Source: an uncultured bacterium (lineage in GTDB: Bacteria > Bdellovibrionota_B > Oligoflexia > Oligoflexales > RGVZ01). From it: a stretch of 26,508 bases of DNA. The notes below the pieces were generated by a model. It was not told the DNA's origin, made no database searches, and saw only the letters and a list, made by a program, of their open reading frames with translations. The translations under genes were made by a program, and so were the position numbers. Below, in pieces: positions 3,204 to 26,508 of the stretch. Numbering within the stretch: the stretch's first letter is position 1; every line of letters begins with the position of its first letter. The DNA is taken from contig CAWUNT010000001.1 in the NCBI GenBank assembly GCA_963923405.1, forward strand, positions 1 to 26,508. Reading direction: 5' to 3'.

Positions 3204-3893
3204 TTACAGCCAGATCGAGAAACCAGTCCCGATCGTGGTTGTCTCGTTGCGGATCGAGTCAAAACTCGTGCTGCCGCTGCCCTTCATCAAGTGCTCCGAA
3301 ATCGTCTTCACGGTGCCGAACACGGAGACCTGGCTGTTCAGGAAGTAATTCATGCCGATCGAGTAATACATGCCGCTGCCGTAGTAGTCGGCACGCTCGA
3401 GGCGTTGCACGAGATCCATGCGGGAAGCCAGGATTCCGCCGCCAAGTTCGAGATTCGCGAGAGGCGCCATGAACACGAAGCGCGCGCCGGCGTTGAGTCG
3501 TGAACCACTCAGGGTCTGGAGTCCGTCATCATTGCGCCGCAGCGACACGAAAGTATGGCCGCCTGTGAATTGTATGAACTTCATCACTTCGAGACCAAAA
3601 TTGGTCCCGATACCGAAACCGCGCCACGAGTCACTGGATGGGCCAAGATTCCCGAGGCCCGAGACCGCGTCAGCGCTCTTTCCGGAAGAACTCACGCCGG
3701 AGAACTTGCCGAATTCGCCGTCGAGCGTCTGGGACACGAACATGTGACTGACGTTCCCGGAACGCATCGTGTTGACGAAGTTGTGGTTACCCGTCGCGAC
3801 GGCCTGCGCGAATGCCTGATGGCTGGTTGCCAGCCCCAGAAACGCTGCCACGACAACCCCTGATGCCTTGACTGTGAATTTACAGAACCCCAT
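3204..3893 (-). CDS. Putative outer-membrane beta-barrel protein
   Basis: ATG 3893 preceded by GGGGAGG; Sec signal (AFA|QA); alternating Gly/aromatic beta-strands; C-terminal strand IGTGFSIWL. Confidence 0.7.
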   Translation of the reverse strand: MGFCKFTVKASGVVVAAFLGLATSHQAFAQAVATGNHNFVNTMRSGNVSHMFVSQTLDGEFGKFSGVSSSGKSADAVSGLGNLGPSSDSWRGFGIGTNFGLEVMKFIQFTGGHTFVSLRRNDDGLQTLSGSRLNAGARFVFMAPLANLELGGGILASRMDLVQRLERADYYGSGMYYSIGMNYFLNSQVSVFGTVKTISEHLMKGSGSTSFDSIRNETTTIGTGFSIWL

Positions 3894-3955
3894 TGCGGCC
3901 TCCCCGACCTCTACCAGCGCTTTAACCATCAGCGATCTGATTTTGGGTGAGGTAC

Positions 3956-3972
3956 TTCAAGGCCCGTGCCAG
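3956..3972 (-). promoter_or_regulatory. Variant sigma54-like -24/-12 promoter of the beta-barrel gene
   Basis: Minus strand CTGGCACGGGCCTTGAA: perfect -24 TGGCACG, correct spacing, TTGA instead of TTGC; predicted TSS about 50 nt before ATG 3893. Confidence 0.45.
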
Positions 3973-4092
3973 ACGCAGGCGTGGGAGGGTCAGGGGTCTG
4001 CCATAATTTTTTCTTATTGATTACAGTGGATTACAGACTGCCTTCCGGCAGGTTCGAAGCAGGGATCACCCGACAGGCATCAGGGGACCTGC

Positions 4093-4743
4093 CTAGCGAA
4101 CAGGTGCAGTGTTAACAGGTTTGACAGCCTCGCCCCGTTCCAGGCGTGATACCCGGCCCGGGAACGGCGCCGCGGGGGCTCCGCCGCCATTGATCCGGAT
4201 GTCGGCTGCCAGCTCGCCATTGCGCCCCGTGAAACGGGACCCACCCTTGCCGAGGAAGGCAAAAAGGCCAGGCTCGACACGCGAAAGGCTCCCCTGCACG
4301 TCCAGATCTCCGACATGCTCCTCGAGGTCATGATCCTCGCCAAAAGTACGGCTCAGGCTCAACCTCAAGCGAAGTTCCCCGGCCTCGGTTTTTCCGCCGG
4401 GAATCGTCTCCACATGCCAGTCGCCAAAATAAAAATGGTTCGGACGATCGATGCGCGCCCTCAGGTTGAACTCCTGGGCACGGCGCGGAATGGTGACTTC
4501 ACGCGACCCGCGCCCCGCGGCGCCGGTTGTGGCGGCCGGCACACGCTCGAACCCCCGGATGACCAGGGGAATCCGCACGCGGGGCGCGTCCGCGTCCGCG
4601 TCCAGCTCCAAATCGGACGTATGGCTGGTCGATGCCTCTTTCGCGAACATGCTCCAGTCGTCTGGCTGGAATGGCGCCGCCATCGCGCTGGAGACCGTCA
4701 TCAAGGCAGCCGTCACGAGAAAAAGTTTTTTGCCGACGCGCAT
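4093..4743 (-). CDS. Hypothetical secreted protein
   Basis: 216-aa ORF with Sec-type signal (MRVGKKLFLVTAALMTVSSAMA|AP), GAGG upstream; no family recognised. Confidence 0.65.
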   Translation of the reverse strand: MRVGKKLFLVTAALMTVSSAMAAPFQPDDWSMFAKEASTSHTSDLELDADADAPRVRIPLVIRGFERVPAATTGAAGRGSREVTIPRRAQEFNLRARIDRPNHFYFGDWHVETIPGGKTEAGELRLRLSLSRTFGEDHDLEEHVGDLDVQGSLSRVEPGLFAFLGKGGSRFTGRNGELAADIRINGGGAPAAPFPGRVSRLERGEAVKPVNTAPVR

Positions 4744-4811
4744 CGGTTGGTTGCCTCATGACTTGGGGATTGGATAATCTCTCCCTTCATTATAGACCGA
4801 CAAGGCAGCAA

Positions 4812-6368
4812 ATGGGCAATGTCATGCACCGCATCAGGACCCGCGCCAACCGCGCGAAGGCAGCGCGCAGCGCGAATCCGGACCCATGCGGATATGTTGT
4901 CAATTGGTCCATCGGCGGCTTGATTCTGGCGAACTTCCTGTTTCTCGGACAGAAAATCCCGGTTCCTTCGTTGATTGCCAAACCCCGCACGGAAGCCCAC
5001 CTTGAGCGCACCGCGAAGGCACTCGAAGCATGGCGTGCCGTCAACGGAACCTACCCGGCAACACTCGGCGAAATGATGGCGTCACCAGAAGTGCGCGAGG
5101 TCAATCCTGATTTTCATGACGCGTCAGGTAATCGCCTTGAATACATCCGGACCGGTTTCGATCGTTTCATCCTGCGCAGTTTTGGCAGTGACTCGGTCCC
5201 GGCCACCAGTAACTCAAGCAACGACGATATCATCCTGGAGAGCGCGAGTTCCCGGTACGCCGGAGGAATGGTCCTTAACAAAAGAGACCACCCGGAAGAC
5301 CACAAAGGTGACTCCCGCGAGTCACCGGTCGCGGATGCCAGTTCTTTCGAGTTTTTCACGTGGCCACCGGCTGCGGCGGAAGGCCTGTGGTCGCCTGACG
5401 GACACTGGCTGGCGCGTGTTGCCTCAAATCCGGTGACGGCCGAAAGACGCATCGTCGTGATCAGCGAGGACCATCAACGCGTCCTCGTGTCACCACACGA
5501 TCGCGTCGAGGAATTCCTCTGGGAGTCGGGTGTCAGCGAACCATCATTGATCTTCACGGCGACCGGCAGCGAACTATACGATGACGGCATTTACCGTTGG
5601 CGCCTCACTGCGTCAGAGCCAGGCGACTCCTCGAAAATGGAAAATCTGATCGAGGATAAAACGCCAGAAGGCCTGCCGGGCCGACTGAACGCCGGCGGCT
5701 CTGCCGCAACGACACCTCAAAAAAAGCGCTGGGTGCTGGCGCTCCTCCAATCCACGGGTACAACCAACGCCCTTGCGGTTCCTGAGGCCGAACTGATCGC
5801 CAGCTCGGGACAAAGAAAATTCCTGGACGCGACCAATGTCCTGGTCTGTCCGCCGGATGGACCCAGGTGCGTGACCAACGCCCGCCTGCACGGCAAACAG
5901 GCCCGTTTCCGCCTTGCGCTGGACCAGTCACACCGCATGCGGGGGACGGTCACCCCGGGTCAAAGGACCTGGAACCGCTTGCCCACCCGCGGCAAGGGTA
6001 CCGAACTGCTTCAATCCTGGAGAACCGGGGAACGGGAAAGCGCCACCAGCGCGATGCAGCCTTACGTCCTGTTTTTCAGCGTCCTGCTTCACGACCAGGT
6101 CCGCGCGACGCCTTCGACCAACATGGGACCGGGGACGCTGAAAAAATTGCAAATCTCGACGGAAGAGGCCGTCGCGGCTCTACTTAAAAGCCAGGAGACA
6201 CCTCGCTACCTGCAAGCCCTGCTTGTCGGCGGGGATCGTCCTTCGTTGAGAAACATGGGTACCAGTGATCCGCGACCGGTTTTTGAGATTACCGACGCGC
6301 GATTAAAGGAGGGTGGAGCCGATGACAGAAAAGAAAAAGCGGCAGCCGGCAAAAAAACTCGCGGCTGA
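4812..6368 (+). CDS. GspG/pseudopilin-like N-terminal domain fused to a beta-propeller-like region
   Basis: N-terminal hydrophobic helix, then ALEAWRAVNGTYP...DASGNRLEY...LRSFGSD...NDDI resembling the T2SS protein G domain; later WSPDGHWLA (TolB/WD40-like). Start 4812 or 4824; the track start at 4632 overlaps the opposite gene. Confidence 0.65.
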   Translation: MGNVMHRIRTRANRAKAARSANPDPCGYVVNWSIGGLILANFLFLGQKIPVPSLIAKPRTEAHLERTAKALEAWRAVNGTYPATLGEMMASPEVREVNPDFHDASGNRLEYIRTGFDRFILRSFGSDSVPATSNSSNDDIILESASSRYAGGMVLNKRDHPEDHKGDSRESPVADASSFEFFTWPPAAAEGLWSPDGHWLARVASNPVTAERRIVVISEDHQRVLVSPHDRVEEFLWESGVSEPSLIFTATGSELYDDGIYRWRLTASEPGDSSKMENLIEDKTPEGLPGRLNAGGSAATTPQKKRWVLALLQSTGTTNALAVPEAELIASSGQRKFLDATNVLVCPPDGPRCVTNARLHGKQARFRLALDQSHRMRGTVTPGQRTWNRLPTRGKGTELLQSWRTGERESATSAMQPYVLFFSVLLHDQVRATPSTNMGPGTLKKLQISTEEAVAALLKSQETPRYLQALLVGGDRPSLRNMGTSDPRPVFEITDARLKEGGADDRKEKAAAGKKTRG

Positions 6369-7512
6369 CCCTTCCATTTACGGAGTCGTTCTCGCGGGTG
6401 GCAGCGGCACCAGATTTTGGCCGAAGTCGCGCCTCAAGTCGCCAAAGCAACTGTGCGTCCTCGGCAACGAAACAGCGCCAATGCTTGAGATCACGCTGGA
6501 TCGTTTCGCGCCTCTGGTGGCGCCATCGCGCAGGATGATCATCACTCACAAGGAACAACTGTCCGCGACGCGCAAGATCGCCGGAAAAAAATGCCCTCTG
6601 CTGATTGCCGAGCCTCAGGCACGCAACACGGCACCTGCCCTTGCTCTGGCTGCGCTGGCGATCGAGAAATCGTGGCGTCCGGGTATCCATGGCAATGACC
6701 GCGAAACTGACGGTCGTGATGCCGGTCCGGTCATGGTCTCGATGCATGCGGATCACGTCATCACCAACCTTGAGAACTTCAATGAGGTGATCCGGCGCGC
6801 GGTCGCGATCGCGCGAACTGGTCGCCTGACCTTGCTGGGGGTCATCCCTGCCTGGCCAGAGACCGGGTATGGTTACATTGAGAGAGGGCACGCCCTGCAC
6901 CTGCGGCCGTTCGACAACAACGTCTACGGGTACGAAGTCGCGGGGTTTCGCGAGAAACCCGATTTCAAAACGGCCTCGCGTTACGTTGAAAGCGGCGCGT
7001 TCCTCTGGAACTCAGGATTGTTTGTCTTCCCGGTACGGACGCTGCTGCGCGAACTCGACCAGAGCCTGCCGGGTGACATGAAAAAACTGCGCGCTTGCCT
7101 GCGCAAAAATGTGAAGCCCGGGGAAAATCCTTTTGACCAGGCAAAACTGGCGCGCGTCTATCCACGACTCGAAAAAATTTCAATCGATGAAGCCGTCCTG
7201 GAGAAGAGCCGCGAAATCGCCGTCGTGGACGCCGACTTTGGCTGGCAAGACATCGGCAGCTGGGATGCCCTCGGGAAAGCATTCCCACCCACAGACTCCG
7301 CGGGAAACCTGGTGAATGGAGACGCGGTCCTGGTCGACACGGAAAACACGACCATCGATTCGGACGGACCACTCGTCGCGGCGATCGGCCTGAAGAACAT
7401 GGTGGTGGTACACCACAAAGGGGCGATTCTGGTGTGTCCCAAGGATCGCGCCCAGGATGTCAAATATGTGGTTGAGGCCCTGAAAGCCGGCAAACGGACG
7501 GATTTGCTCTAG
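6322..7512 (+). CDS. manC: Mannose-1-phosphate guanylyltransferase (no C-terminal isomerase/cupin domain)
   Basis: VVLAGGSGTRFWPKSR..PKQ, EPQARNTAPA, MHADH, PETGYGYI, FREKP, WNSGLF, SIDEAVLEKS, WQDIGSW; AAGGAGG upstream of ATG 6322. Confidence 0.92.
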   Translation: MTEKKKRQPAKKLAADPSIYGVVLAGGSGTRFWPKSRLKSPKQLCVLGNETAPMLEITLDRFAPLVAPSRRMIITHKEQLSATRKIAGKKCPLLIAEPQARNTAPALALAALAIEKSWRPGIHGNDRETDGRDAGPVMVSMHADHVITNLENFNEVIRRAVAIARTGRLTLLGVIPAWPETGYGYIERGHALHLRPFDNNVYGYEVAGFREKPDFKTASRYVESGAFLWNSGLFVFPVRTLLRELDQSLPGDMKKLRACLRKNVKPGENPFDQAKLARVYPRLEKISIDEAVLEKSREIAVVDADFGWQDIGSWDALGKAFPPTDSAGNLVNGDAVLVDTENTTIDSDGPLVAAIGLKNMVVVHHKGAILVCPKDRAQDVKYVVEALKAGKRTDLL

Positions 7513-7513
7513 G

Positions 7514-8665
7514 TTAGAGCCGGTAACCGTATGCGTTGCCGAGTCCAGTCAGGAAGTAAATCCCGTCTTGCATGAACAGGGGTTGGGCGGTCACGCTGTA
7601 ACCTGTGGAATCATTCCACTGCGTAGCGCCCGACTGGATGTCCATCGATGTCACGCGTCCGTTGGATGAGGTCGCCACGACCCTGGTCTCCGCCGCCGTC
7701 AAAGTCGTCGGGGGCGCGCCAGTGACTGTACGCCACAATTGACGACCCTGATTATTCTGGTCGAGGGCGATGACGTCCCCATTCACGCAACCGATGAACA
7801 TGCGTCCATTGCGCACAGTGGACGTCGCGATGGCCGGGTACTTCTCCTGCCACACCGTCCGCGTATCAGATGTCTGGATGTCGACTGCCGCGACAACGCC
7901 GTCATAGCGAGTCAGGTACAGGATTCCATCACGCACCTGCATCTCACCGACCACATCACGGAACCTCGCGTCACTGACGACAGGATTGGCGCGCCAAGAT
8001 TGCTTGCCGTTCTGCAGCCCCGCCGCAACGACTTCGCCCGAGGCGAGCCCGGCGATCACCATGTCGCCTGATACGACTGGCGCGGCACCGCCCTGTACGG
8101 TGAGACCATCGGGGAAGCCCGCGTCGAACAGCCAGAGGCTCTTCCCGGTCTGGTAATCGATCCCGTACAGAACCTGGGCCGAGGTCTGGATCAGCAGCAC
8201 ATTCCCGGCAAGTACCGGTTTGCGATCGGTGAACGAATCCAGGGAACCTTCCCAGGCGCGTTTCCCGGTGGTGACATCAACTTTGAAAATCTTGCCGTTT
8301 CTGGTTCCGAAAACGACAAACCCGCCGAGGTTGACCATCGGACTCGTGACTTCACTGCCGGCATCGAACCACCAGTTCACTTTGCCAGAATTGAATTCCC
8401 GCGAACCGACCCAGCCCTCACCGGACGAACTGAAGTCACCGATGACGGACTCGCCGTGAACGGCCAAACCAGAACGGTTGTCCCGGCCGAGTGGTTTCTC
8501 GTGGTTGATCGAAGGCAGAAACGTGATCGTCCGCAAACGGAAGGGACGGGTCGCCGGGTCCGCGCTGTCGGCATCGGCCCTGGCGATCGGCGCGGCACAC
8601 AAAGCCGCCATTGCCATCACAAAAAACAAACGCATGATTTTTCCCGCCACACTTGGTCGAATCAA
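7514..8665 (-). CDS. bamB: PQQ-type beta-propeller, BamB-like outer-membrane assembly factor
   Basis: Repeated PQQ-like blades (VDVTTGKRAWE, IDYQTGKSLW, LQNGKQSW, LDQNNQGRQLW, DIQSGATQW); directly downstream of a YfgM-like gene as in the conserved yfgM-bamB pair. Start is TTG 8665 or ATG 8635. Confidence 0.75.
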   Translation of the reverse strand: MIRPSVAGKIMRLFFVMAMAALCAAPIARADADSADPATRPFRLRTITFLPSINHEKPLGRDNRSGLAVHGESVIGDFSSSGEGWVGSREFNSGKVNWWFDAGSEVTSPMVNLGGFVVFGTRNGKIFKVDVTTGKRAWEGSLDSFTDRKPVLAGNVLLIQTSAQVLYGIDYQTGKSLWLFDAGFPDGLTVQGGAAPVVSGDMVIAGLASGEVVAAGLQNGKQSWRANPVVSDARFRDVVGEMQVRDGILYLTRYDGVVAAVDIQTSDTRTVWQEKYPAIATSTVRNGRMFIGCVNGDVIALDQNNQGRQLWRTVTGAPPTTLTAAETRVVATSSNGRVTSMDIQSGATQWNDSTGYSVTAQPLFMQDGIYFLTGLGNAYGYRL

Positions 8666-11112: not shown

Positions 11113-11129
11113 AGCAGTGAACGTGCCAG
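11113..11129 (-). promoter_or_regulatory. sigma54 -24/-12 promoter
   Basis: Minus strand CTGGCACGTTCACTGCT (GG-N10-GC, perfect TGGCACG). Confidence 0.7.
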
Positions 11130-19013: not shown

Positions 19014-19030
19014 CAGGCACACCAATTGCT
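19014..19030 (+). promoter_or_regulatory. sigma54 -24/-12 promoter of the YqjE-like operon
   Basis: CAGGCACACCAATTGCT (GG-N10-GC, TTGCT); predicted TSS about 49 nt before ATG 19090. Confidence 0.72.
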
Positions 19031-19089
19031 TTCTTCCACCATTCAACCGGACCGGGCCTGTTCCGGCCAAGAACTGGAGGCAAAGAGCG

Positions 19090-19425
19090 ATGGATCATCA
19101 AGGCGGTACGCCATCGAGGCAGATCATGCGTGAGATGGGCGATGACATTACTCTCTTGCTTCGCCTGTCGGTGAGCCACGCGGCCGCACGGGCAAAACAG
19201 ATCATCGACGAGGAACGGCGTATGATGCAGGCCGTCGTCACGAGGGCGATTTTGTCACTGCCGGTCCTGATCATGGCAACCCTTTTCGCGGGAGCAGCCA
19301 TTATCGAATGGCTGGCCGGCATGTTCCCGCTGCCTCTGGCAACCGTGTACGGTCTGGCCGCCGCGACTTTTGCGTTGCTCGCCGTCGTGATTCTCCTGTG
19401 GCCACGGAGGCAGCGAGCCCGATGA
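19090..19425 (+). CDS. Two-TM YqjE/phage-holin-family-like membrane protein
   Basis: 111 aa, GGAGG SD, amphipathic N-terminal helix, two TMs, basic tail (WPRRQRAR); family call by resemblance only. Confidence 0.62.
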   Translation: MDHQGGTPSRQIMREMGDDITLLLRLSVSHAAARAKQIIDEERRMMQAVVTRAILSLPVLIMATLFAGAAIIEWLAGMFPLPLATVYGLAAATFALLAVVILLWPRRQRAR

Positions 19426-19877
19426 GCGTAACTGACGACACCGACCGGTCGGATAATGAAACGTCAAGGGTGGTGGAACTGCGCCGGGCGGCCATGGCCA
19501 GGCGTCGCTTGCGCGAGAACATGGAGCGCATCGCTTCTGGCGATATCGGACGCGGCGTGGGAATTTCCATCGTCGCCACGTCTGTGGCAACGTCCGCGGC
19601 GCGCAAGTCCCGGCAGGTGGTGCGGGAAGCCCCCCTGATCGCCATCGGCACCGCCATCGCGGCAGGCTTTCTAATGGGATCGCGACGCCGCCGCGGCGCC
19701 AACCCGCCCGTGCCCAAAGGGTGGGCACCCCACCCCGCGCCCACAGCCGGGGCTGCGCACCAGACGGGATTTGCCGGGGCGCACCCGATTTGGACGGGAC
19801 TTGCCAGCCTCGGGATCCAGATGGTCCTGGATGCGCTCGCGAGCAGACGGTTTGACACCATGGAGCACGGTGGTTAG
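19422..19877 (+). CDS. YqjK/DUF3618-like protein with ElaB/DUF883-type TM motif
   Basis: ATGA overlap with the upstream stop; ARRRLRENMERIA helix, then VVREAPLIAIGTAIAAGFLMGSRRRR; 151 aa. Confidence 0.6.
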   Translation: MSVTDDTDRSDNETSRVVELRRAAMARRRLRENMERIASGDIGRGVGISIVATSVATSAARKSRQVVREAPLIAIGTAIAAGFLMGSRRRRGANPPVPKGWAPHPAPTAGAAHQTGFAGAHPIWTGLASLGIQMVLDALASRRFDTMEHGG

Positions 19878-19899
19878 ATTCAAGCCTCACAATTGAGGT

Positions 19900-20673
19900 T
19901 TGCCAACGGTGCAATCGACGCTGATCATCGTCCCGACTTACAATGAGTGCGATAACATCTCATTGCTCATGAACGGGATCATGGCCCAGGCGCCAACCTG
20001 TTCCGTCCTTTTTATCGACGACAACTCCACTGACGGCACCCGCGACGAAATCCAGCGCTTCATTGACGCGCGGCCAGACAAGGTTTTCCTGGAAAAACGC
20101 GCGGGAAAACTGGGACTTGGCACAGCCTACATCCATGGATTCAAATGGGCATTGCAACGGGACTATGACCGGATCATCCAGATGGATGCCGACTTGTCAC
20201 ATGATCCGAAATACCTGCCGGGAATGATCCGGCAACTGGAATCAAAGCCGCTGGTCATCGGCAGCCGTTACGTGACTGGCGGAGGGACCAGGAACTGGTC
20301 AGCCATCCGCAAACTGATCAGCAGGTTCGGCAGCATTTACGCGCGCCTCATCCTGGGACTTCCAGTCAACGATTTTACTGGCGGCTTCAACGGCTGGCAG
20401 GCAGCGACCTTGCGATCGCTGCCCCTGGATGATGTCAAGAGCAATGGATACGTGTTTCAAATCGAGATGAAGGCCCGGGCGATCCGGAGCGGTTCGACCT
20501 TTGTCGAGATCCCGATTGTTTTTGTAGACCGCCAGGTCGGCCAGTCAAAGATGTCATCGGGAATCGTTTACGAGGCCATGTGGCGCGTGCTGACCCTGCG
20601 TCAAACGCTCGCCACAAGCAAGTCCCGGCGACTCAACGACCAACACGCCGGGCGACCAGCAAACCAAGGATGA
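19900..20673 (+). CDS. Polyprenol monophosphomannose synthase-like GT2 (Ppm1/DPM1-like)
   Basis: IIVPTYNE, IDDNSTDGT, GLGTAY, QMDADLSHDP, VIGSRYV.GGG, DFTGGF, SNGYVFQIE, EIPIVFVDR..G.SKMS; start TTG 19900 or GTG 19909. Confidence 0.88.
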   Translation: MPTVQSTLIIVPTYNECDNISLLMNGIMAQAPTCSVLFIDDNSTDGTRDEIQRFIDARPDKVFLEKRAGKLGLGTAYIHGFKWALQRDYDRIIQMDADLSHDPKYLPGMIRQLESKPLVIGSRYVTGGGTRNWSAIRKLISRFGSIYARLILGLPVNDFTGGFNGWQAATLRSLPLDDVKSNGYVFQIEMKARAIRSGSTFVEIPIVFVDRQVGQSKMSSGIVYEAMWRVLTLRQTLATSKSRRLNDQHAGRPANQG

Positions 20674-20812
20674 AACCCGCGGCGATGGAAGCCAGCGGCC
20701 TTTCGCGAACGACCTTGCGCAGTTTTTCCGCGCCCGACTCGATCGCCTCGTTGACGTCCACTTCCTGTAGCCACACTTTTGCTTTTTGAATTTCTGTTGC
20801 TGTCGCGTTCAT
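20633..20812 (-). CDS. 59-aa ElaB/YqjD/DUF883-like tail-anchored small protein (absent from the ORF track)
   Basis: Translated by hand: MNATATEIQKAKVWLQEVDVNEAIESGAEKLRKVVRERPLASIAAGFILGLLVARRVGR*; ATGA overlap with the upstream stop; C-terminal VRERP-TM-RR signature. Confidence 0.8.
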   Translation of the reverse strand: MNATATEIQKAKVWLQEVDVNEAIESGAEKLRKVVRERPLASIAAGFILGLLVARRVGR

Positions 20813-21054
20813 GCTGCGCTGTACCCCCGTTCTTTTGCGTCTTTCTCAAGCAATCCCAGCACGTGACGTTTCACTTCCTGAATCTGCTTTGAATCTTCCT
20901 CGATCAGGCGGTTCAACAATTCCGTGCAACATTTCGACTTCTCGGACTTCGCGTCGTTCAAGTAGCGCTTGTAAGCGTAGACGCCTTCTGACTTGCACTT
21001 GAGGATGTTGATCCAGTCATACATCAGGTCGTTCACTTCGGTTGGCGTGGCCAT
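20809..21054 (-). CDS. Small two-helix ferritin-like stress protein (81 aa)
   Basis: AAGGAGG SD before ATG 21054; DLMYDWINIL...EGVYAYKRYLNDAK...C.ELLNRLIEED pattern resembling half of a ferritin-like bundle. ORF is confident; family call is tentative. Confidence 0.72.
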   Translation of the reverse strand: MATPTEVNDLMYDWINILKCKSEGVYAYKRYLNDAKSEKSKCCTELLNRLIEEDSKQIQEVKRHVLGLLEKDAKERGYSAA

Positions 21055-21111
21055 GGTGTCCTCCTTTGGAAACTCGTCCCGCGAAACATCCAACGGGACA
21101 TGGCCCATCAA

Positions 21112-21128
21112 AGCAATCGCCGTGCCTG
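21112..21128 (-). promoter_or_regulatory. sigma54 -24/-12 promoter of the ferritin-like/DUF883 operon
   Basis: Minus strand CAGGCACGGCGATTGCT; in the 88-nt gap; predicted TSS about 47 nt before ATG 21054. Confidence 0.78.
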
Positions 21129-21142
21129 CGCGCCGGATTCGC

Positions 21143-22606
21143 TTACGCTCCCATTTCTTCCTTGAGGCATTCGCGGGTCATTCCATATTTCACCATGAGG
21201 CGATAGATGTCGGCGCGGTAGCGCCCGCAAATTCGCGCGGCCTCCGAGATGTTCCCGCGCGACAACTTCAGGAGTTCACGCAAGTACAACTTCTCGAAGT
21301 TCTCCTTGGCCTCGGAAAGAGGCATTGCCAGGTAATCCACCATCGCGGCGGCTGCCCCGGCAAGGGCAGGATCCGGGGAATCGACGCTGATCATCCCGGC
21401 GTCCTCGATCATGTGGTCGATCCGCAGCTTGCCGTCGCGCGCCAGCACGACACCACGCTCAACAGCGTTTTGCAGTTCACGAATGTTGCCCGGCCAGGGA
21501 CGGGACACGAGACGTGCCATGATCTCCCGCGACGGCGCTTCGACATTCTTGCCAAACCGCGCATTGAACATCGCCAGAAAATGGTTCACCAGCAATGGTA
21601 TGTCTGAGGTCCGTTCCCGCAGGGGTGGCAAGTGGATCTTTAGAACCGACAACCGGTAGTACAGGTCCTCACGGAAACGGCCCTTCCGGACTTCTTCCTC
21701 GAGGCTGCGATTGGTTGCCGCAACCACCCTCGTATTGACCTTGATCGACTGGTTGGACCCGACCGGAGTCACGCGGCTCTCCTGAAGGACGCGCAGCAAT
21801 TTAACCTGAAGCTGCAGCGGCATCTCCCCGATTTCATCGAGGAACAGGGTCCCATCCGAACACGTCTCGAAGAATCCCTTGTGGTCCGTCTTCGCGTCCG
21901 TGAAAGCTCCCCGTTTGTGCCCGAACAATTCGGACTCGAGAAGAGCCTCTGGAATCGCGCCACAGTTGATGGCCTCGAATCTCTTGCCGGCACGCGCGCT
22001 GGTCGAGTGCAGGGCCTTCGCCACCACCTCCTTGCCAGTGCCGCTCTCACCAGTGATGAGGACACGAGAGTCCACGTCACGGAGGATGTCAATGTAGTCC
22101 ATGACCCGCTGCAGGGCCGCGCTCTCACCCACCAACCCGAAATCAGCGGCTCGCAAACTGGAATGCGGAACCAGGCCTCCCGGCGCAACGTCAACCGGAC
22201 CGGAAATTCCAGCAGTACCGGCAATGCCGCCCTTGAACCCGAGCCGGGCCTTCAAACCCTCGACCAGAGCCGACGGGTCGCCCGTCTTGACAAGGAACGA
22301 TGTCGCGCCGCGCTCCATCGCGTCCACGGCGACTTCGATGCTGCCTTTTGCCGTCATCACGAACACGCGGGTTGTTGGCGACTCACGCAAAATCAAAGGC
22401 AGCGCCTCAAGCCCGTCCTCGTCACCAAGGCGCACGTCCAGCAACACCGCGTCATAACGGGAACGCCGCAACAACTCCGCAGCCTCTGCCAGGCATTCCG
22501 CGGAGTCACACTCGAAACCAGCGGCGCGAAATCGCGCCCCAAGAAGCTCGAGCAGGCACGGATCGTCATCAACCATGAGAATTCGCAAGTCACACCCCCG
22601 AATCAA
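21143..22606 (-). CDS. sigma54-dependent response regulator (REC-AAA+-Fis HTH, NtrC family)
   Basis: ILMVDDD, VLLDVRL, Walker A GESGTGKE, ESELFGHKRGAFTDA, Walker B LFLDEIGEM, FREDLYYRL, WPGNIRELQN, HTH GNISEAARICGRYRADIYRL; TTG start overlapping the hpt stop. Confidence 0.95.
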   Translation of the reverse strand: MIRGCDLRILMVDDDPCLLELLGARFRAAGFECDSAECLAEAAELLRRSRYDAVLLDVRLGDEDGLEALPLILRESPTTRVFVMTAKGSIEVAVDAMERGATSFLVKTGDPSALVEGLKARLGFKGGIAGTAGISGPVDVAPGGLVPHSSLRAADFGLVGESAALQRVMDYIDILRDVDSRVLITGESGTGKEVVAKALHSTSARAGKRFEAINCGAIPEALLESELFGHKRGAFTDAKTDHKGFFETCSDGTLFLDEIGEMPLQLQVKLLRVLQESRVTPVGSNQSIKVNTRVVAATNRSLEEEVRKGRFREDLYYRLSVLKIHLPPLRERTSDIPLLVNHFLAMFNARFGKNVEAPSREIMARLVSRPWPGNIRELQNAVERGVVLARDGKLRIDHMIEDAGMISVDSPDPALAGAAAAMVDYLAMPLSEAKENFEKLYLRELLKLSRGNISEAARICGRYRADIYRLMVKYGMTRECLKEEMGA

Positions 22607-22977
22607 AGACTTCCAATCGCGAGTCGAATCGCGGCGGCGAGCGTCGCCAACTCGTCCACATCACCCAAACTGCCGGCGAGATCCCGGCCGGATGATGCCT
22701 GAATCTCCACCCGTCCTGCGACGTCCGCCACGGACGGGTAACCGTAACTCCCGGCGGCGCCGCGAATCATGTGAGCGATCTTGCACGCCTCAACCGCGTC
22801 ACCCGAGACCACGGCGGTGCGTAATCCAGCGACGCGCTTTAGCAATGTCGCGGCGAACTGCGGCAACAACTGTCTCACAATCGGGTCATCCATGTATGCC
22901 GACCACAACGGACCACGAGCGATCCCGCGCGACGAAACTGCTGATGCAGAATTTCCCGATGTAAACTTCTTGGCCAC
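22603..22977 (-). CDS. Stand-alone Hpt (histidine phosphotransfer) protein
   Basis: 124 aa, helical; IAHMIRGAAGSYG phospho-His motif; GTG start. Confidence 0.88.
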   Translation of the reverse strand: MAKKFTSGNSASAVSSRGIARGPLWSAYMDDPIVRQLLPQFAATLLKRVAGLRTAVVSGDAVEACKIAHMIRGAAGSYGYPSVADVAGRVEIQASSGRDLAGSLGDVDELATLAAAIRLAIGSL

Positions 22978-23031
22978 AAATCCCCCGGTTGTCCTTGCGG
23001 CTGTCCTGCTTGTCGTTTCCAGGTGGAGTAA

Positions 23032-23047
23032 AGCAACGACAGTGCCA
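23032..23047 (-). promoter_or_regulatory. sigma54 -24/-12 promoter of the hpt-activator operon
   Basis: Minus strand TGGCACTGTCGTTGCT, exact TGGCAC-N5-TTGC; predicted TSS about 44 nt before GTG 22977. Confidence 0.82.
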
Positions 23048-23121
23048 CGTCATCTCGCAGCGAGGATTCCCACACCTCACTTCAAACTGCAAGCAAGCCG
23101 GACTGCGTTTTTGCTGATTAT

Positions 23122-23162
23122 TTCTGAACGAAAGCCGGGTTCGTTAAGTAATCCTGAACGAA
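23122..23162. repeat. Three CT(G/T)AACGAA half-sites; candidate upstream activator sequence
   Basis: CTGAACGAA at 23124-23132 and 23154-23162 (direct, 30-bp period); inverted copy TTCGTTAAG at 23140-23148, giving AACGAA-N7-TTCGTT. Confidence 0.55.
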
Positions 23163-23201
23163 CCTGCAGTTTCATGTCGATTTCATCACCGGTTTCCGGG
23201 A

Positions 23202-23218
23202 CTGGCACAAACTGTGCT
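23202..23218 (+). promoter_or_regulatory. sigma54 -24/-12 promoter, divergent from hpt, no clear downstream CDS
   Basis: CTGGCACAAACTGTGCT (GG-N10-GC; -12 GTGC rather than TTGC). Confidence 0.55.
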
Positions 23219-23279
23219 TCACCCAACTCGCGTGTTGGAAACAAAATTCCTGATGGATACCCGCCATGCCGTCAGGGAG

Positions 23280-23380
23280 AAGCCGCTCACGGATTCCCTC
23301 ACCTCAATTGACTCTCCGGTCCCGGACAGACTGCCGATCCTACCCAAAGATTTATCGTCCAAGGAATCCTCAAGCGGCTC
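23280..23380 (-). ncRNA. Candidate structured RNA element downstream of the CBS gene
   Basis: About 20-position closing helix (23380-23361 with 23299-23280): 1 mismatch and 4 G-U on the minus strand, which are A-C mismatches on plus; six GGA triplets. Confidence 0.4.
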
Positions 23381-23401
23381 ACACGCGGCACCGCTCTCAA
23401 C

Positions 23402-23842
23402 TCAGGCTGAGCGCAGCGCGTCCAGGTCGATGCCGCTGCCGTTACCCATGCCAACCGCGTCGGGATGACTCGCGATGATGCGGAGAAGGTCCGTGCTCGT
23501 CACAATCCCGAGGATTCTCCTGTCAATAACCACAGGGATGCACGAAATCTGAAGCCTGATCATCGCCGCAGCGATATCCTTCAGGGAGCTCGTCGGAAAA
23601 CAAGTGACCACATTCCTGGACATGATGCTGCTGACTGGACGATCCGGCACGTCAATGCGCCCCTCGCGCAGAGTCGAGGCCAACAGGATATCGCCATCGG
23701 AGACGATCCCGGCCAATTTCCCGGACTCCACAACCGGAATATGGCGGATGCCGAACTCACGCATGTATTTGCGAGCCTCGGCAATGCTGGTTGCCGGATT
23801 GACGAACACGACCTCTTTTTTCATGGCCTGAAATGCGCGCAT
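23402..23842 (-). CDS. CBS-pair domain protein
   Basis: Two CBS repeats (IRHIPVVESGKLAGIVSDGDI; ISCIPVVIDRRILGIVTSTDL); GGGAGGGG 6 nt before ATG 23842; the track start at 23896 falls inside the promoter. Confidence 0.92.
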   Translation of the reverse strand: MRAFQAMKKEVVFVNPATSIAEARKYMREFGIRHIPVVESGKLAGIVSDGDILLASTLREGRIDVPDRPVSSIMSRNVVTCFPTSSLKDIAAAMIRLQISCIPVVIDRRILGIVTSTDLLRIIASHPDAVGMGNGSGIDLDALRSA

Positions 23843-23884
23843 CAGAGACCCCTCCCGGTTTCGTGGTTTTGACGCAACACTCTG

Positions 23885-23900
23885 AGCAACGCTCATGCCA
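23885..23900 (-). promoter_or_regulatory. sigma54 -24/-12 promoter of the CBS gene
   Basis: Minus strand TGGCATGAGCGTTGCT; predicted TSS about 32 nt before ATG 23842. Confidence 0.8.
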
Positions 23901-24012
23901 TATGGCTAAAAACTACCACTCGCATGCCTGATTTCCGGTGTTGCGCGCCGGATCCCACTGTGGCAGATGGCGCCCTGTCGCGACTTCGATCGCGAATCAT
24001 CAGGAAAAGCCG

Positions 24013-25596
24013 TTGAAATCGAAACAACATGAAAACCTGAAACAGGACATTGCCGCGATTGCGGCGAACCTGTCTGACAGTATCTTCTTTGTCTGGGACA
24101 TCGATCTGGACGAAGTTCAGGTCATCGCCGGCAGTTATGAGTCATTCGGGATTTCAGCGCCATCGATGACTTATTCACCGTCCTGGTGGATGAGCCGGAT
24201 CCATCCCCAAGACCGCCCGACGGTCATGCGACTCGTTTCATCGGTCGAGCCCGGCCAATCCAAAGTATCTTGTGAGTACCGGGTCCAGCGCGACGATGGC
24301 TCCTGGGCTGACGTCCTTGACCGGGCGCGCGTTGTCTGGCGCGAGGGGCGCGTGAGCCAGTTTGTTGGCGTGACGACGGACGTCTCGGTTCTCGCGTCAA
24401 CAAAACGCGAGCTCATCGAGGCGCGCAAGACCGCCGAGACCGCCTCCGCCACCAAATCACGATTTCTCGCCAACATGTCCCACGAGTTGCGCACGCCACT
24501 GAACGCCGTGACCGCGTCCATCGCGCTCCTGCGCAACAACAACATCAGCAAGTCGGAATCCCGCAAACTGCTCAGCGTGATCCAGCGCAATACGAATCAC
24601 GTGCTGCATCTTGTCGATGACATCCTTGACCTCGCCAAAGTTGAAGCCGGAATGCTGCGCATTGATCCCAAAAAGATACACCTCAAGAGTTTCCTGACCG
24701 AACTGACTGAGGTTTTTCAAATCCAGGCCAACGCGAAGGAATTGCATTTTTCGGTCGACATCACTGACGGAGTGCCGGAAGCGATTGAGACTGATCCCGC
24801 GCGCCTCAGGCAGATCCTGATCAACTTGACGGGTAACGCCCTCAAGTTCACGGATGCCGGGTTTGTGCGCCTTTCCGTTGGCGCCAAAAATGGACAACTT
24901 GAATTCCGGATCCGCGACAGTGGTCCCGGCATCGAAGGCACCATGGCGGCGAAGCTTTTCAACCCCTTCGTGCAACTCGATGAATCCCTCTCGCGCAAAC
25001 ATGGTGGGACAGGCCTTGGCCTGAACCTGTCAATGAAACTGGCGTCGACCCTCGGCGGCGAATTGACGCTCGAGTGTTCAACCCCTGGTCAGGGATCTAC
25101 TTTCCTGCTTGAGCTGCCGATGCTGGCTGCGTCACTGAATGACGTCGAGGAACTTCCAAATACGGTCAGTGACCAAAGGCATGAGCCGGGCAACACGCGC
25201 CTCTCCGGCAAGACCATCCTTCTCGTCGATGACGCGGTCGACAACCGGATGCTGTTCGAGAAACTTCTGGAACTGCGCGGCGCGCATGTCTTGCTGGCCG
25301 GGAACGGACTCCAGTGCGTTGAAGTCGTCGAGGCCAGCCGTGTTGACGGAACACTTCCCGACATCGTGCTCATGGACATCGAAATGCCCATCATGGACGG
25401 GCCGACCGCGCTGCGGCGACTCCGTGAAAACGGATTCAAGGGACCCGTCATCGCGATGACCGCGCACGCGATGAATGAGCACCGGGAAGAATACATCCGA
25501 CTGGGATTTGATGGATACGTGAGCAAACCAGTCGACCAGCAGGCGCTGGTCCGACTGATTTGCAAGCTCGTGGGGTCAGGCGGCCCCCTCCTTTGA
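24013..25596 (+). CDS. Cytoplasmic PAS hybrid histidine kinase (PAS-HisKA-HATPase-REC)
   Basis: PAS (SRIHPQDR...EYRVQRDDGSW...FVGVTTDV), H-box FLANMSHELRTPL, N-box NLTGNALKFT, DSGPGI, GGTGLGL, REC LLVDD/VLMDIEMP/SKP; no TM. Start TTG 24013 (AGGA SD) or GTG 23938. Confidence 0.94.
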   Translation: MKSKQHENLKQDIAAIAANLSDSIFFVWDIDLDEVQVIAGSYESFGISAPSMTYSPSWWMSRIHPQDRPTVMRLVSSVEPGQSKVSCEYRVQRDDGSWADVLDRARVVWREGRVSQFVGVTTDVSVLASTKRELIEARKTAETASATKSRFLANMSHELRTPLNAVTASIALLRNNNISKSESRKLLSVIQRNTNHVLHLVDDILDLAKVEAGMLRIDPKKIHLKSFLTELTEVFQIQANAKELHFSVDITDGVPEAIETDPARLRQILINLTGNALKFTDAGFVRLSVGAKNGQLEFRIRDSGPGIEGTMAAKLFNPFVQLDESLSRKHGGTGLGLNLSMKLASTLGGELTLECSTPGQGSTFLLELPMLAASLNDVEELPNTVSDQRHEPGNTRLSGKTILLVDDAVDNRMLFEKLLELRGAHVLLAGNGLQCVEVVEASRVDGTLPDIVLMDIEMPIMDGPTALRRLRENGFKGPVIAMTAHAMNEHREEYIRLGFDGYVSKPVDQQALVRLICKLVGSGGPLL

Positions 25597-25932
25597 TTCT
25601 TCGGATTCCTTTTCATGAGTCTTTGAATGGGCGCCCTCATGCCCTTTTTGCGCGGCTGCCTTGCGGCGCGCTGCCAGGCCGCGGCGGGCCTCGCCGCCCT
25701 TGCGTCCGATCAACGCCATGTGCGCCGTGTCGCGACTGACGATCTCGCCACCTTTGCGACCGGCCTTGCGGGCCTCTTCCGGTGTGAACTTGTGGGCCGT
25801 TCCCTTGACGTGCGCGGCACGACCGCCCTTGCGCGCGATGGCGCGCTGCGTTTCCGGGTCCATGGACGCGAATCCACGCAGGGACTTTGATTTGGTCGCC
25901 GGCTTGTCTTTCTCAGGGTGCTCTTTTTCCAT
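25576..25932 (-). CDS. KGG-repeat general stress protein (YciG/Con-10/GsiB-like)
   Basis: RGFASMDPETQRAIARKGG, AHKFTPEEARKAGRKGG, IGRKGG; AGGAG SD 7 nt before the ATG. Confidence 0.92.
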   Translation of the reverse strand: MEKEHPEKDKPATKSKSLRGFASMDPETQRAIARKGGRAAHVKGTAHKFTPEEARKAGRKGGEIVSRDTAHMALIGRKGGEARRGLAARRKAAAQKGHEGAHSKTHEKESEESKEGAA

Positions 25933-25986
25933 GCTTGTTCTCCTGACGTTGATGAAAGTCGCGAACTGCGCTTTTCATCACCGGAG

Positions 25987-26003
25987 AGCAAAACATGTGC
26001 CCG
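25987..26003 (-). promoter_or_regulatory. sigma54 -24/-12 promoter of the KGG gene
   Basis: Minus strand CGGGCACATGTTTTGCT (GG-N10-GC, TTGCT); predicted TSS about 44 nt before ATG 25932. Confidence 0.72.
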
Positions 26004-26007
26004 CGAT

Positions 26008-26508
26008 TCAGCGGGGCTTTTTCCCGGACTTGTTGCCGGCGTTCAGGAACGCCGCCGCAAGCGCGCTGCCGGAACTTCCCCTGGCCGCGATCGAGATCGT
26101 CGATGGAACAACCTCATCAGGATCAACGGCCTTTGCCGCGGCGCCGCCAGAGGTAACGGGCTGGACTTCGTCCTTCAACGAAACGCCGATCCTCTTCTTG
26201 ATCCGGTCAACGGCCGTCACCCGGACTTGCACTTGCTGACCAGGCTGAACGACCTCAGCCGGCCGGTTGATCCGGCGCTTGGAGGACATCTCCGAAATGT
26301 GCAGAAGGGCCTCGATACCGGGCGCGATCTCGACGAAGGCGCCGAACTCGGCAAGGCGCGTCACGGTTCCCGCAACCATGCGCTGAGGCGCGATGGATTC
26401 AGGCAAGTTGTCCCATGGATCCGCGTCGGCCTGCTTGATGCTGGCGGAAATCCTCGGTTTTCCCTGGAAAGACTCAAATTTCAGGATCTTGACGGTAACC
26501 GTCTCGCC
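26008..26508 (-). CDS. S1 RNA-binding repeat protein (ribosomal protein S1 or paralog), 3' part only
   Basis: Frame open to the window edge: GETVTVKILKF...KPRISASIKQ..DPW, then the S1 repeat GTVTRLAEFGAFVEIAPGIEALLHISEM...RIGVSLK. Confidence 0.88.
   Translation of the reverse strand, partial: GETVTVKILKFESFQGKPRISASIKQADADPWDNLPESIAPQRMVAGTVTRLAEFGAFVEIAPGIEALLHISEMSSKRRINRPAEVVQPGQQVQVRVTAVDRIKKRIGVSLKDEVQPVTSGGAAAKAVDPDEVVPSTISIAARGSSGSALAAAFLNAGNKSGKKPR

Follow-up and report, generated by a model that had tools for sequence, protein, structure and literature searches.

Results

Sigma-54-like boxes surround a phosphorelay

The DNA analyzed here, which we refer to as the window, is a 26.5-kb stretch corresponding to contig C1 of a draft genome (G000) of an uncultured bacterium. 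The assembly comprises 2.6 Mb in 519 contigs, is 77% complete and has 58% G+C, and its closest relatives are freshwater metagenome-assembled genomes of the Oligoflexales / "Pseudobacteriovorax" (Bdellovibrionota, Oligoflexia). We focused on a region in which six boxes resembling the -24/-12 promoter element of sigma-54 are interleaved with genes for stress-type proteins and for the parts of a phosphorelay (Table 1), and we compared it with six congeneric genomes (G001-G006) and a genome of the sister genus (G007). An earlier note, made from the sequence of this DNA, had described the six boxes and placed five of them at gene starts, and we confirmed both observations in the sequence. These five boxes, P1 to P5, match GGCAY-N5-TTGCT, with GG and GC 10 nt apart, and are oriented toward the gene that follows. 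From the GC of the -12 element to the start codon we measured 43-60 nt, in place of the 30-50 nt given in the note.

Table 1. Sigma-54-like boxes, genes and candidate enhancer sites in the cluster (positions in the window; aa, amino acids; TM, transmembrane segment; GT2, family-2 glycosyltransferase).
Feature	Position	Strand	Remarks
P1 box	19014..19030	+	AGGCACaccaaTTGCT at 19016; AGGCAC-N5-TTGCT; for the 111-aa / 151-aa (/GT2) unit; kept in G004, G001, G006, G005
111-aa two-TM membrane protein	19090..19425	+	weak YqjE/holin-X match (PF07332), 16.4 bits vs cut-off 28.4
151-aa protein with DUF883_C-like tail anchor	19422..19877	+	PF19029, 17.9 bits, below cut-off 27
GT2	19900..20673	+	PF00535, 87.7 bits
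59-aa mini DUF883/YqjD-like tail-anchored protein	20633..20812	-	coupled to p81; PF19029, 20.7 bits vs cut-off 27
p81, 81-aa two-helix protein of unknown family	20809..21054	-	conserved; no Pfam or NCBIfam match
P2 box	21112..21128	-	AGGCACggcgaTTGCT at 21126; serves p81 and the mini-DUF883 gene; conserved in congeners
Sigma-54 activator	21143..22606	-	REC (Asp57), AAA+ with GAFTDA loop, Fis-type helix-turn-helix; PF00158, 235 bits; PF00072, 83 bits
Stand-alone Hpt protein	22603..22977	-	PF01627, 32.8 bits; motif HMIRGAAGSYG; overlaps activator gene start
P3 box	23032..23047	-	TGGCACtgtcgTTGCT at 23046; hpt-activator operon; TGGCACTGTCGTTGCT identical in G004, G001, G006
Three CT(G/T)AACGAA half-sites, candidate enhancer	23122..23162		86-116 nt upstream of P3; one copy kept in G001
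P6, orphan sigma-54-like box	23202..23218	+	TGGCACaaactGTGCT at 23204; -12 is GTGCT; kept only in G004
Stand-alone CBS-pair protein, 146 aa	23402..23842	-	PF00571, 110.8 bits
P4 box	23885..23900	-	TGGCATgagcgTTGCT at 23899; serves the CBS gene; conserved in congeners
Soluble hybrid kinase, PAS_3-HisKA-HATPase-REC	23938..25596	+	profile matches; lacks a sigma-54 box
KGG-repeat (YciG/GsiB-type) protein, 118 aa	25576..25932	-	PF10685, 50 bits vs cut-off 20.4; two repeats
P5 box	25987..26003	-	GGGCACatgttTTGCT at 26001; serves the KGG gene; conserved in congeners

The pattern GGCAY-N5-KTGCT has six matches in the window, and all of them fall within the 7 kb between 19016 and 26001. In the shuffled window 0.28 matches are expected, and none of 100 shuffles reached six. 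The same pattern occurs at 28 sites in the 2.6 Mb of the genome, which corresponds to about 0.075 expected sites per 7 kb compared with the six observed. Because the total of 28 is close to what base composition predicts, the genome-wide count proves nothing alone, and it is location that separates signal from chance. The slightly wider pattern GGCAY-N5-KTGCW has 36 sites in the genome, and 16 of these lie in promoter context, by which we mean that the DNA looks intergenic and is followed, 15-110 nt downstream, by an open reading frame (ORF) with a ribosome-binding site. For 30 permuted patterns that matched in composition, promoter-context sites averaged 1.9 per pattern and never exceeded 6. 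Looser scans were uninformative: GG-N10-GC gave 97 matches in the window with 82 expected, and a consensus scan allowing three mismatches gave 228 with 244 expected. The earlier note had proposed a genome-wide scan with a position weight matrix (PWM) against a background. The total from that scan did not exceed Markov controls, save in the top tail, whereas the promoter-context analysis did separate the boxes from their controls. Upstream of the five units we found no sigma-70-like promoter.

The boxes are conserved in four congeners

Activator orthologs are present in four of the six congeners, G004, G001, G006 and G005, at 93, 80, 79 and 75% identity, respectively. In these four genomes, wherever a contig reaches the unit, a box precedes the same five units, so the conservation of the -24/-12 boxes at orthologous loci that the earlier note had proposed as a check was borne out. 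GGCA and TTGC do not vary in the alignments, in contrast to the N5 spacers and the flanks, which have diverged. Among congeners the P1 spacer reads ACCAA, ATGAT or ACCAT, and the P2 spacer reads GGCGA, ACCGC, GCCGA or GGAGT. The kinase and CBS genes are swapped in G005, yet each unit retains its own box. With these results, we conclude that P1 to P5 are, as far as sequence can tell, almost certainly functional sigma-54 promoters.

The activator, p81 and the KGG gene are jointly present in five members of the genus and jointly absent in G002 and G003, both of which are 90% complete; the OEP efflux gene that adjoins them is missing from these two genomes as well. Within the genus, this entire region seems variable. 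Just outside the window, directly past the S1-domain gene at its end, a seventh conserved box precedes a UDP-GlcNAc 2-epimerase gene (G000 contig C161:382-396, +). It is also found at L114:4185, L115:15496 and L117:3998, and its -12 element is GTGCT in all four copies. When we scanned public genomes with the activator, we obtained only generic NtrC-like matches at 44% identity or less, and the cargo genes were absent from all of these loci.

Two further features of the window were observed near or outside these promoters. The terminator-like hairpin of the S1-domain gene (26000-26015, CCCGCTGAATCGCGGG) overlaps the -24 element of P5. Outside the cluster, a sigma-54-like box, TGGCACgttcaCTGCT, lies at 11114-11128 (-) with a PWM score of 12.3 bits.

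Phosphorylation sites of the relay and rpoN are intact

The earlier note had proposed that a relay from kinase through Hpt to enhancer-binding protein is encoded in the middle of the cluster, and we found all of its parts and phosphorylation sites to be present. The kinase has an intact H-box (HELRTP) and receiver motif (LMDIEMP). In the activator, Asp57, the Walker A and B motifs and GNISEAARICGRYRADIYRL could be read from the sequence; Pfam HTH_8 was not reported in the profile search. The sigma-54-contact loop of the activator is GAFTDA, not GAFTGA, with the F and T kept. This variant is fixed in all orthologs across the order, the other activators of the G000 genome have the canonical GAFTGA loop, and among about 78 NtrC-like activators sampled from Myxococcota, Geobacter, Planctomycetota and Acidobacteriota, 12 share GAFTDA. 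LuxO orthology can be rejected for the activator of the cluster, which scores 325 bits with NF041946 at a cut-off of 800. The rpoN gene, on which the proposal in the note depended, is intact, and its AID, CBD and DBD domains are all present. The kinase stays in the cluster with unchanged domain architecture in G001 and G005, and a genome from another family (G035) has an activator-Hpt-kinase-kinase operon; both observations support the relay as a functional unit.

The cargo genes

The cargo had been described in the earlier note as a familiar general-stress set. We found that the KGG, CBS and GT2 assignments stood. The DUF883 (YqjD/ElaB) assignments were weak and below the curated cut-off, the YqjE assignment fell below threshold, and the YqjK assignment was not supported. 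For the 111-aa protein, four of five orthologs matched PF07332 weakly, and comparison with E. coli YqjE by hhalign gave no match (probability 0.7%). The 151-aa protein was rejected as a YqjK (PF13997) homolog, having no Pfam match to that family and no BLASTP match to E. coli YqjK. As controls, E. coli YqjE and YqjK scored 75.8 and 87.6 bits in their own families. The 59-aa protein was matched by hhalign to the C-terminus of E. coli YqjD with 85% probability (E 5.8e-6). In both DUF883 candidates only the C-terminal PF19029 part was matched, not the PF05957 N-domain.

The p81 protein had been called ferritin-like, which we could not prove. Its predicted fold is a helical hairpin with a predicted local distance difference test score (pLDDT) of 87, and Foldseek returned nothing below an E value of 0.5, with EncFtn and YciE among the non-significant matches. 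The conserved pair of residues is (E/D)xxxH, not ExxH.

P6 has no credible gene behind it

The earlier note had counted a sixth promoter at P6. A box is indeed present there, but it is kept only in G004 and no credible gene follows it. Its conservation in G004 is uninformative, as the intergenic DNA of G004 is too similar overall. A 70-aa gene was ruled out as its target, since this ORF is rich in Arg, Ser and Pro and is truncated in G004. The function of P6 is therefore doubtful as judged from the sequence.

In the interval that separates P6 from the 3' end of the CBS gene, positions 23266-23400 are unusually strongly conserved between G000 and G004 (93% over 44 codons of an ORF that is not credible), and the entire P6-CBS spacer is absent in G001. 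This segment may be a lineage-specific RNA element; an Rfam search of the window gave no match.

Sigma-54-type boxes at related genes in other genomes

p81 belongs to a rare family. Homologs that are 35-45% identical to it are encoded in a second family of the order and in the planctomycete Tautonia. At four of the five homologous loci (three of four in this second family, and Tautonia), GGCAY-N5-TTGCW precedes the ATG by 45-55 nt. In the sister genus, G007 has six TGGCA-type boxes within 4.3 kb (L176, G007:C206:64000-74000, 3428-7604). These precede genes for a DUF2383 four-helix-bundle protein (49 bits), an Hpt protein, a REC and AAA+ activator (split), a KGG protein, a 93-aa protein and an outer-membrane protein; a second activator, of PocR type, adjoins the island. 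Five further genomes have a conserved GGYATAAAAMTTGMA box at KGG genes under a relaxed pattern. This is weaker evidence, as the -12 element is TTGAA in two of the five, and the strict PWM found no box at the KGG genes of other genera.

Elsewhere in the G000 genome, a box, TGGCA(C/A)NATTATTGCT, lies some 30 nt before the ATG of an Hsp20 gene (contig C25:8430-8444, +). The box is kept as TGGCA(C/A)-N5-TTGCT in G001, G002, G005 and G006 (L141-L144). The sigma factors of these bacteria are few. G000, G001, G002 and G006 each have only three genes of the sigma-70 family, encoding RpoD, FliA and an RpoH-type factor, and G005 has four. RpoS was not found, and sigma factors of the extracytoplasmic function (ECF) class are almost lacking in the genus, with none in G000, G001, G002 and G006.

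Many other boxes in the G000 genome precede genes for secreted proteins or lipoproteins. One box with a score of 20.1 bits (contig C165:975-989, +) stands before an ORF at 1046-2632 (529 aa) whose product has a thiol-activated (cholesterol-dependent) cytolysin domain (PF01289, 158 bits) and resembles a pore-forming toxin homolog.

Discussion

Interpretation of the cluster

Taken together, we consider that the cluster is best explained as a conserved sigma-54-dependent set of stress-type genes with an embedded, probably self-activating phosphorelay, a reading to which we give somewhat better than even odds of being right. The soluble PAS hybrid histidine kinase would autophosphorylate and pass the phosphate to its own receiver, from there to the stand-alone Hpt protein, and from Hpt to Asp57 of the REC-AAA+-helix-turn-helix enhancer-binding protein. 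The phosphorylated activator would then open sigma-54 closed complexes at its own hpt-activator promoter, which would create positive feedback. Most likely it would also open the complexes at the four neighboring units, which are those of the membrane protein and DUF883-like protein (with GT2), p81 and mini-DUF883, the CBS pair, and KGG. We infer that the activator serves all five promoters and that the inducing signal is stress or starvation; the transcription start sites, too, are deduced from the boxes.

That one activator drives all of the promoters is the weakest link, as the argument for it comes solely from gene neighborhood, namely the linkage kept between species, the joint absence of activator, p81 and KGG from G002 and G003, and the activator-KGG adjacency that recurs in G007. 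Several observations count against the interpretation. The CT(G/T)AACGAA repeats are confined to the interval between P3 and P6 and are not enriched at the other promoters; with two mismatches allowed, CTKAACGAA occurred at 6.0 per kb compared with a background of 4.0 per kb. Enumeration of palindromic dyads for an enhancer shared by the five promoters remained at background level, and a search for TGAACGAA with one mismatch gave nothing above background. A Gibbs sampler run on 15 upstream regions reached an information content of 8.2 and 9.8, compared with 6.8-8.9 in shuffles, and likewise did not stand out from background. The genome encodes six sigma-54 activators, five besides that of the cluster, and because the Hsp20 box persists in G002, which lacks the cluster activator, at least two activators serve stress genes in the genus. 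The GT2 gene may be transcribed independently of P1, judging from a sigma-70-like promoter of its own directly before its start (TTGACA-17-TAGATT, 10 of 12 positions matching, 19852-19880, +). The joint absence of activator, p81 and KGG from G002 and G003 may reflect mere loss of the region. Several of the cargo assignments lie below curated cut-offs. Lastly, among public RNA runs none holds the locus as RNA, and one metatranscriptome contains only scraps of unrelated conserved domains.

The main rival draws on the same observations. It holds that the boxes are genuine sigma-54 promoters without forming a single regulon, such that the relay runs its own operon, and perhaps one neighbor, while the other units answer to others of the six activators, each with a signal of its own. 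The failure to detect a shared enhancer, the confinement of the repeats to the P3-P6 interval, the number of activators in the genome, the retention of the G002 Hsp20 box and the two activators of the G007 island all suit this explanation. It accounts less well for the fact that the five units have stayed linked to the hpt-activator operon through four species and through the change in gene order in G005, or for the KGG gene that again adjoins Hpt and an activator in G007. In addition, the negative enhancer search is weak evidence, because activator sites may be degenerate 8-bp half-sites with variable spacing that escape sequence searches, as is the case for Nla28 (PMC9765219). We regard separate control of the units as rather unlikely, although it deserves serious consideration.

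A different view of the cargo is that the cluster is an envelope-remodeling or dormancy (resting-cell) program, in which the KGG and DUF883 genes are accessory and no general stress response is involved. The GT2 gene in the first unit, the seventh box before the UDP-GlcNAc 2-epimerase gene, the three membrane-anchored products and the secreted proteins and lipoproteins behind many of the genome's boxes point in this direction, as does the argument made by Francke et al. 2011 (PMC3162934) that the cell exterior is under the control of sigma-54. The KGG, CBS-pair and p81 proteins are, however, of soluble cytoplasmic type, and Hsp20 likewise lies behind a sigma-54 box. We consider such a program improbable as a replacement for the stress reading, with which it is nonetheless compatible, since the two are not mutually exclusive. 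That the motif matches reflect chance or a non-promoter sequence bias would agree with the near-expected genome total of the strict pattern. It does not agree with sites that are clustered, oriented with genes and placed directly before start codons, and the persistence of the boxes across four species and at distant p81 homologs refutes it in practice; we give it virtually no credence.

Relation to known systems

The relay of the cluster shares its architecture with LuxN/LuxQ-LuxU-LuxO of Vibrio and ShkA-ShpA-TacA of Caulobacter, in which a hybrid kinase signals through a stand-alone Hpt protein to a REC-AAA+-helix-turn-helix sigma-54 activator. The divergent orphan box P6 beside the hpt-activator operon recalls qrr1 beside luxOU, but P6 is not kept beyond the nearest relative. 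The targets also differ, as those of the cluster are protein-coding stress-type genes, whereas the LuxO and TacA systems control Qrr small RNAs or stalk genes. PspF/psp and RtcR/rtcBA are sigma-54 stress units. Like these and like DVU3305, the cluster has a dedicated sigma-54 activator for a few stress-protection genes beside its own gene. Each of the three has one promoter or operon, whereas the cluster has five or more promoters, phosphorelay input and other cargo families.

The kinds of cargo found here, KGG, DUF883-type and CBS-pair proteins, with Hsp20 elsewhere in the genome, are held in common with the regulons of RpoS (E. coli yciG, yqjD and elaB), SigB (Bacillus gsiB) and EcfG/PhyR (Alphaproteobacteria). 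Compared with these, control in the cluster would be of the sigma-54 class, with an ATP-driven activator, a tight off-state and none of the logic of anti-sigma factors and proteolysis, and it would cover a small, clustered gene set.

The earlier note knew of no description of this wiring. This was too strong, as two related systems have been published. DVU3305 of Desulfovibrio vulgaris is listed under "general stress response" (PMC4641369), and Nla28 of Myxococcus xanthus is described as a sigma-54 activator of the early starvation and general stress response that is autoregulated, with tandem 8-bp sites (PMC9765219). We consider Nla28 to be the nearest published parallel. As in Nla28S/Nla28, the activator of the cluster is of the response-regulator type, is encoded with a kinase and would activate its own operon, and three 8-bp half-sites lie upstream of Nla28's own promoter much as three candidate half-sites lie upstream of P3. 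The half-site consensus of Nla28, CT(C/G)CG(C/G)AG, is unlike the CT(G/T)AACGAA of the cluster. Unlike the relay described here, Nla28S/Nla28 is a two-component pair without Hpt, and its kinase is membrane-bound. The promoters that Nla28 targets are dispersed and mostly intragenic and belong to regulatory and metabolic genes, whereas the targets proposed here form a compact KGG, DUF883 and CBS cluster. Our literature search turned up no study that connects KGG or DUF883 genes with sigma-54.

Implications for stress control in sigma-factor-poor bacteria

Since the sigma set of the genus consists of RpoD, RpoH, FliA and RpoN, sigma-54 and its activators are the available route for the conditional expression of protectants. 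This lineage, poor in sigma factors, probably places under sigma-54 genes that RpoS or SigB control in model bacteria. A broader claim would be that sigma-54 is the general-stress sigma factor in the Oligoflexales, with the relay replacing RpoS, SigB or EcfG for KGG, DUF883, CBS and p81, and that such rewiring has arisen in, or spread to, other phyla. The planctomycete p81 homolog, which sits behind a sigma-54 box, would be an instance. We put this joint claim forward tentatively, as one that is a little more apt to fail than to hold.

General stress responses are the textbook case of control by sigma factors of the sigma-70 family, namely RpoS, SigB and EcfG. A conserved sigma-54 case would show an alternative logic, in which the off-state is tight, activation is driven by ATP and a phosphorelay with feedback provides the input, and it would account for the way in which lineages nearly devoid of alternative sigma factors deal with stress. 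The cluster also offers compact natural sigma-54 promoters and one candidate activator that could be tested in a heterologous host, and p81, an unknown family tied to sigma-54 control in two phyla, is a lead to function. These observations would gain in value should sigma-54 prove to replace RpoS-type control generally. If the broader claim is true, the arrangement would represent an unrecognized, widespread alternative design of the bacterial general stress response.

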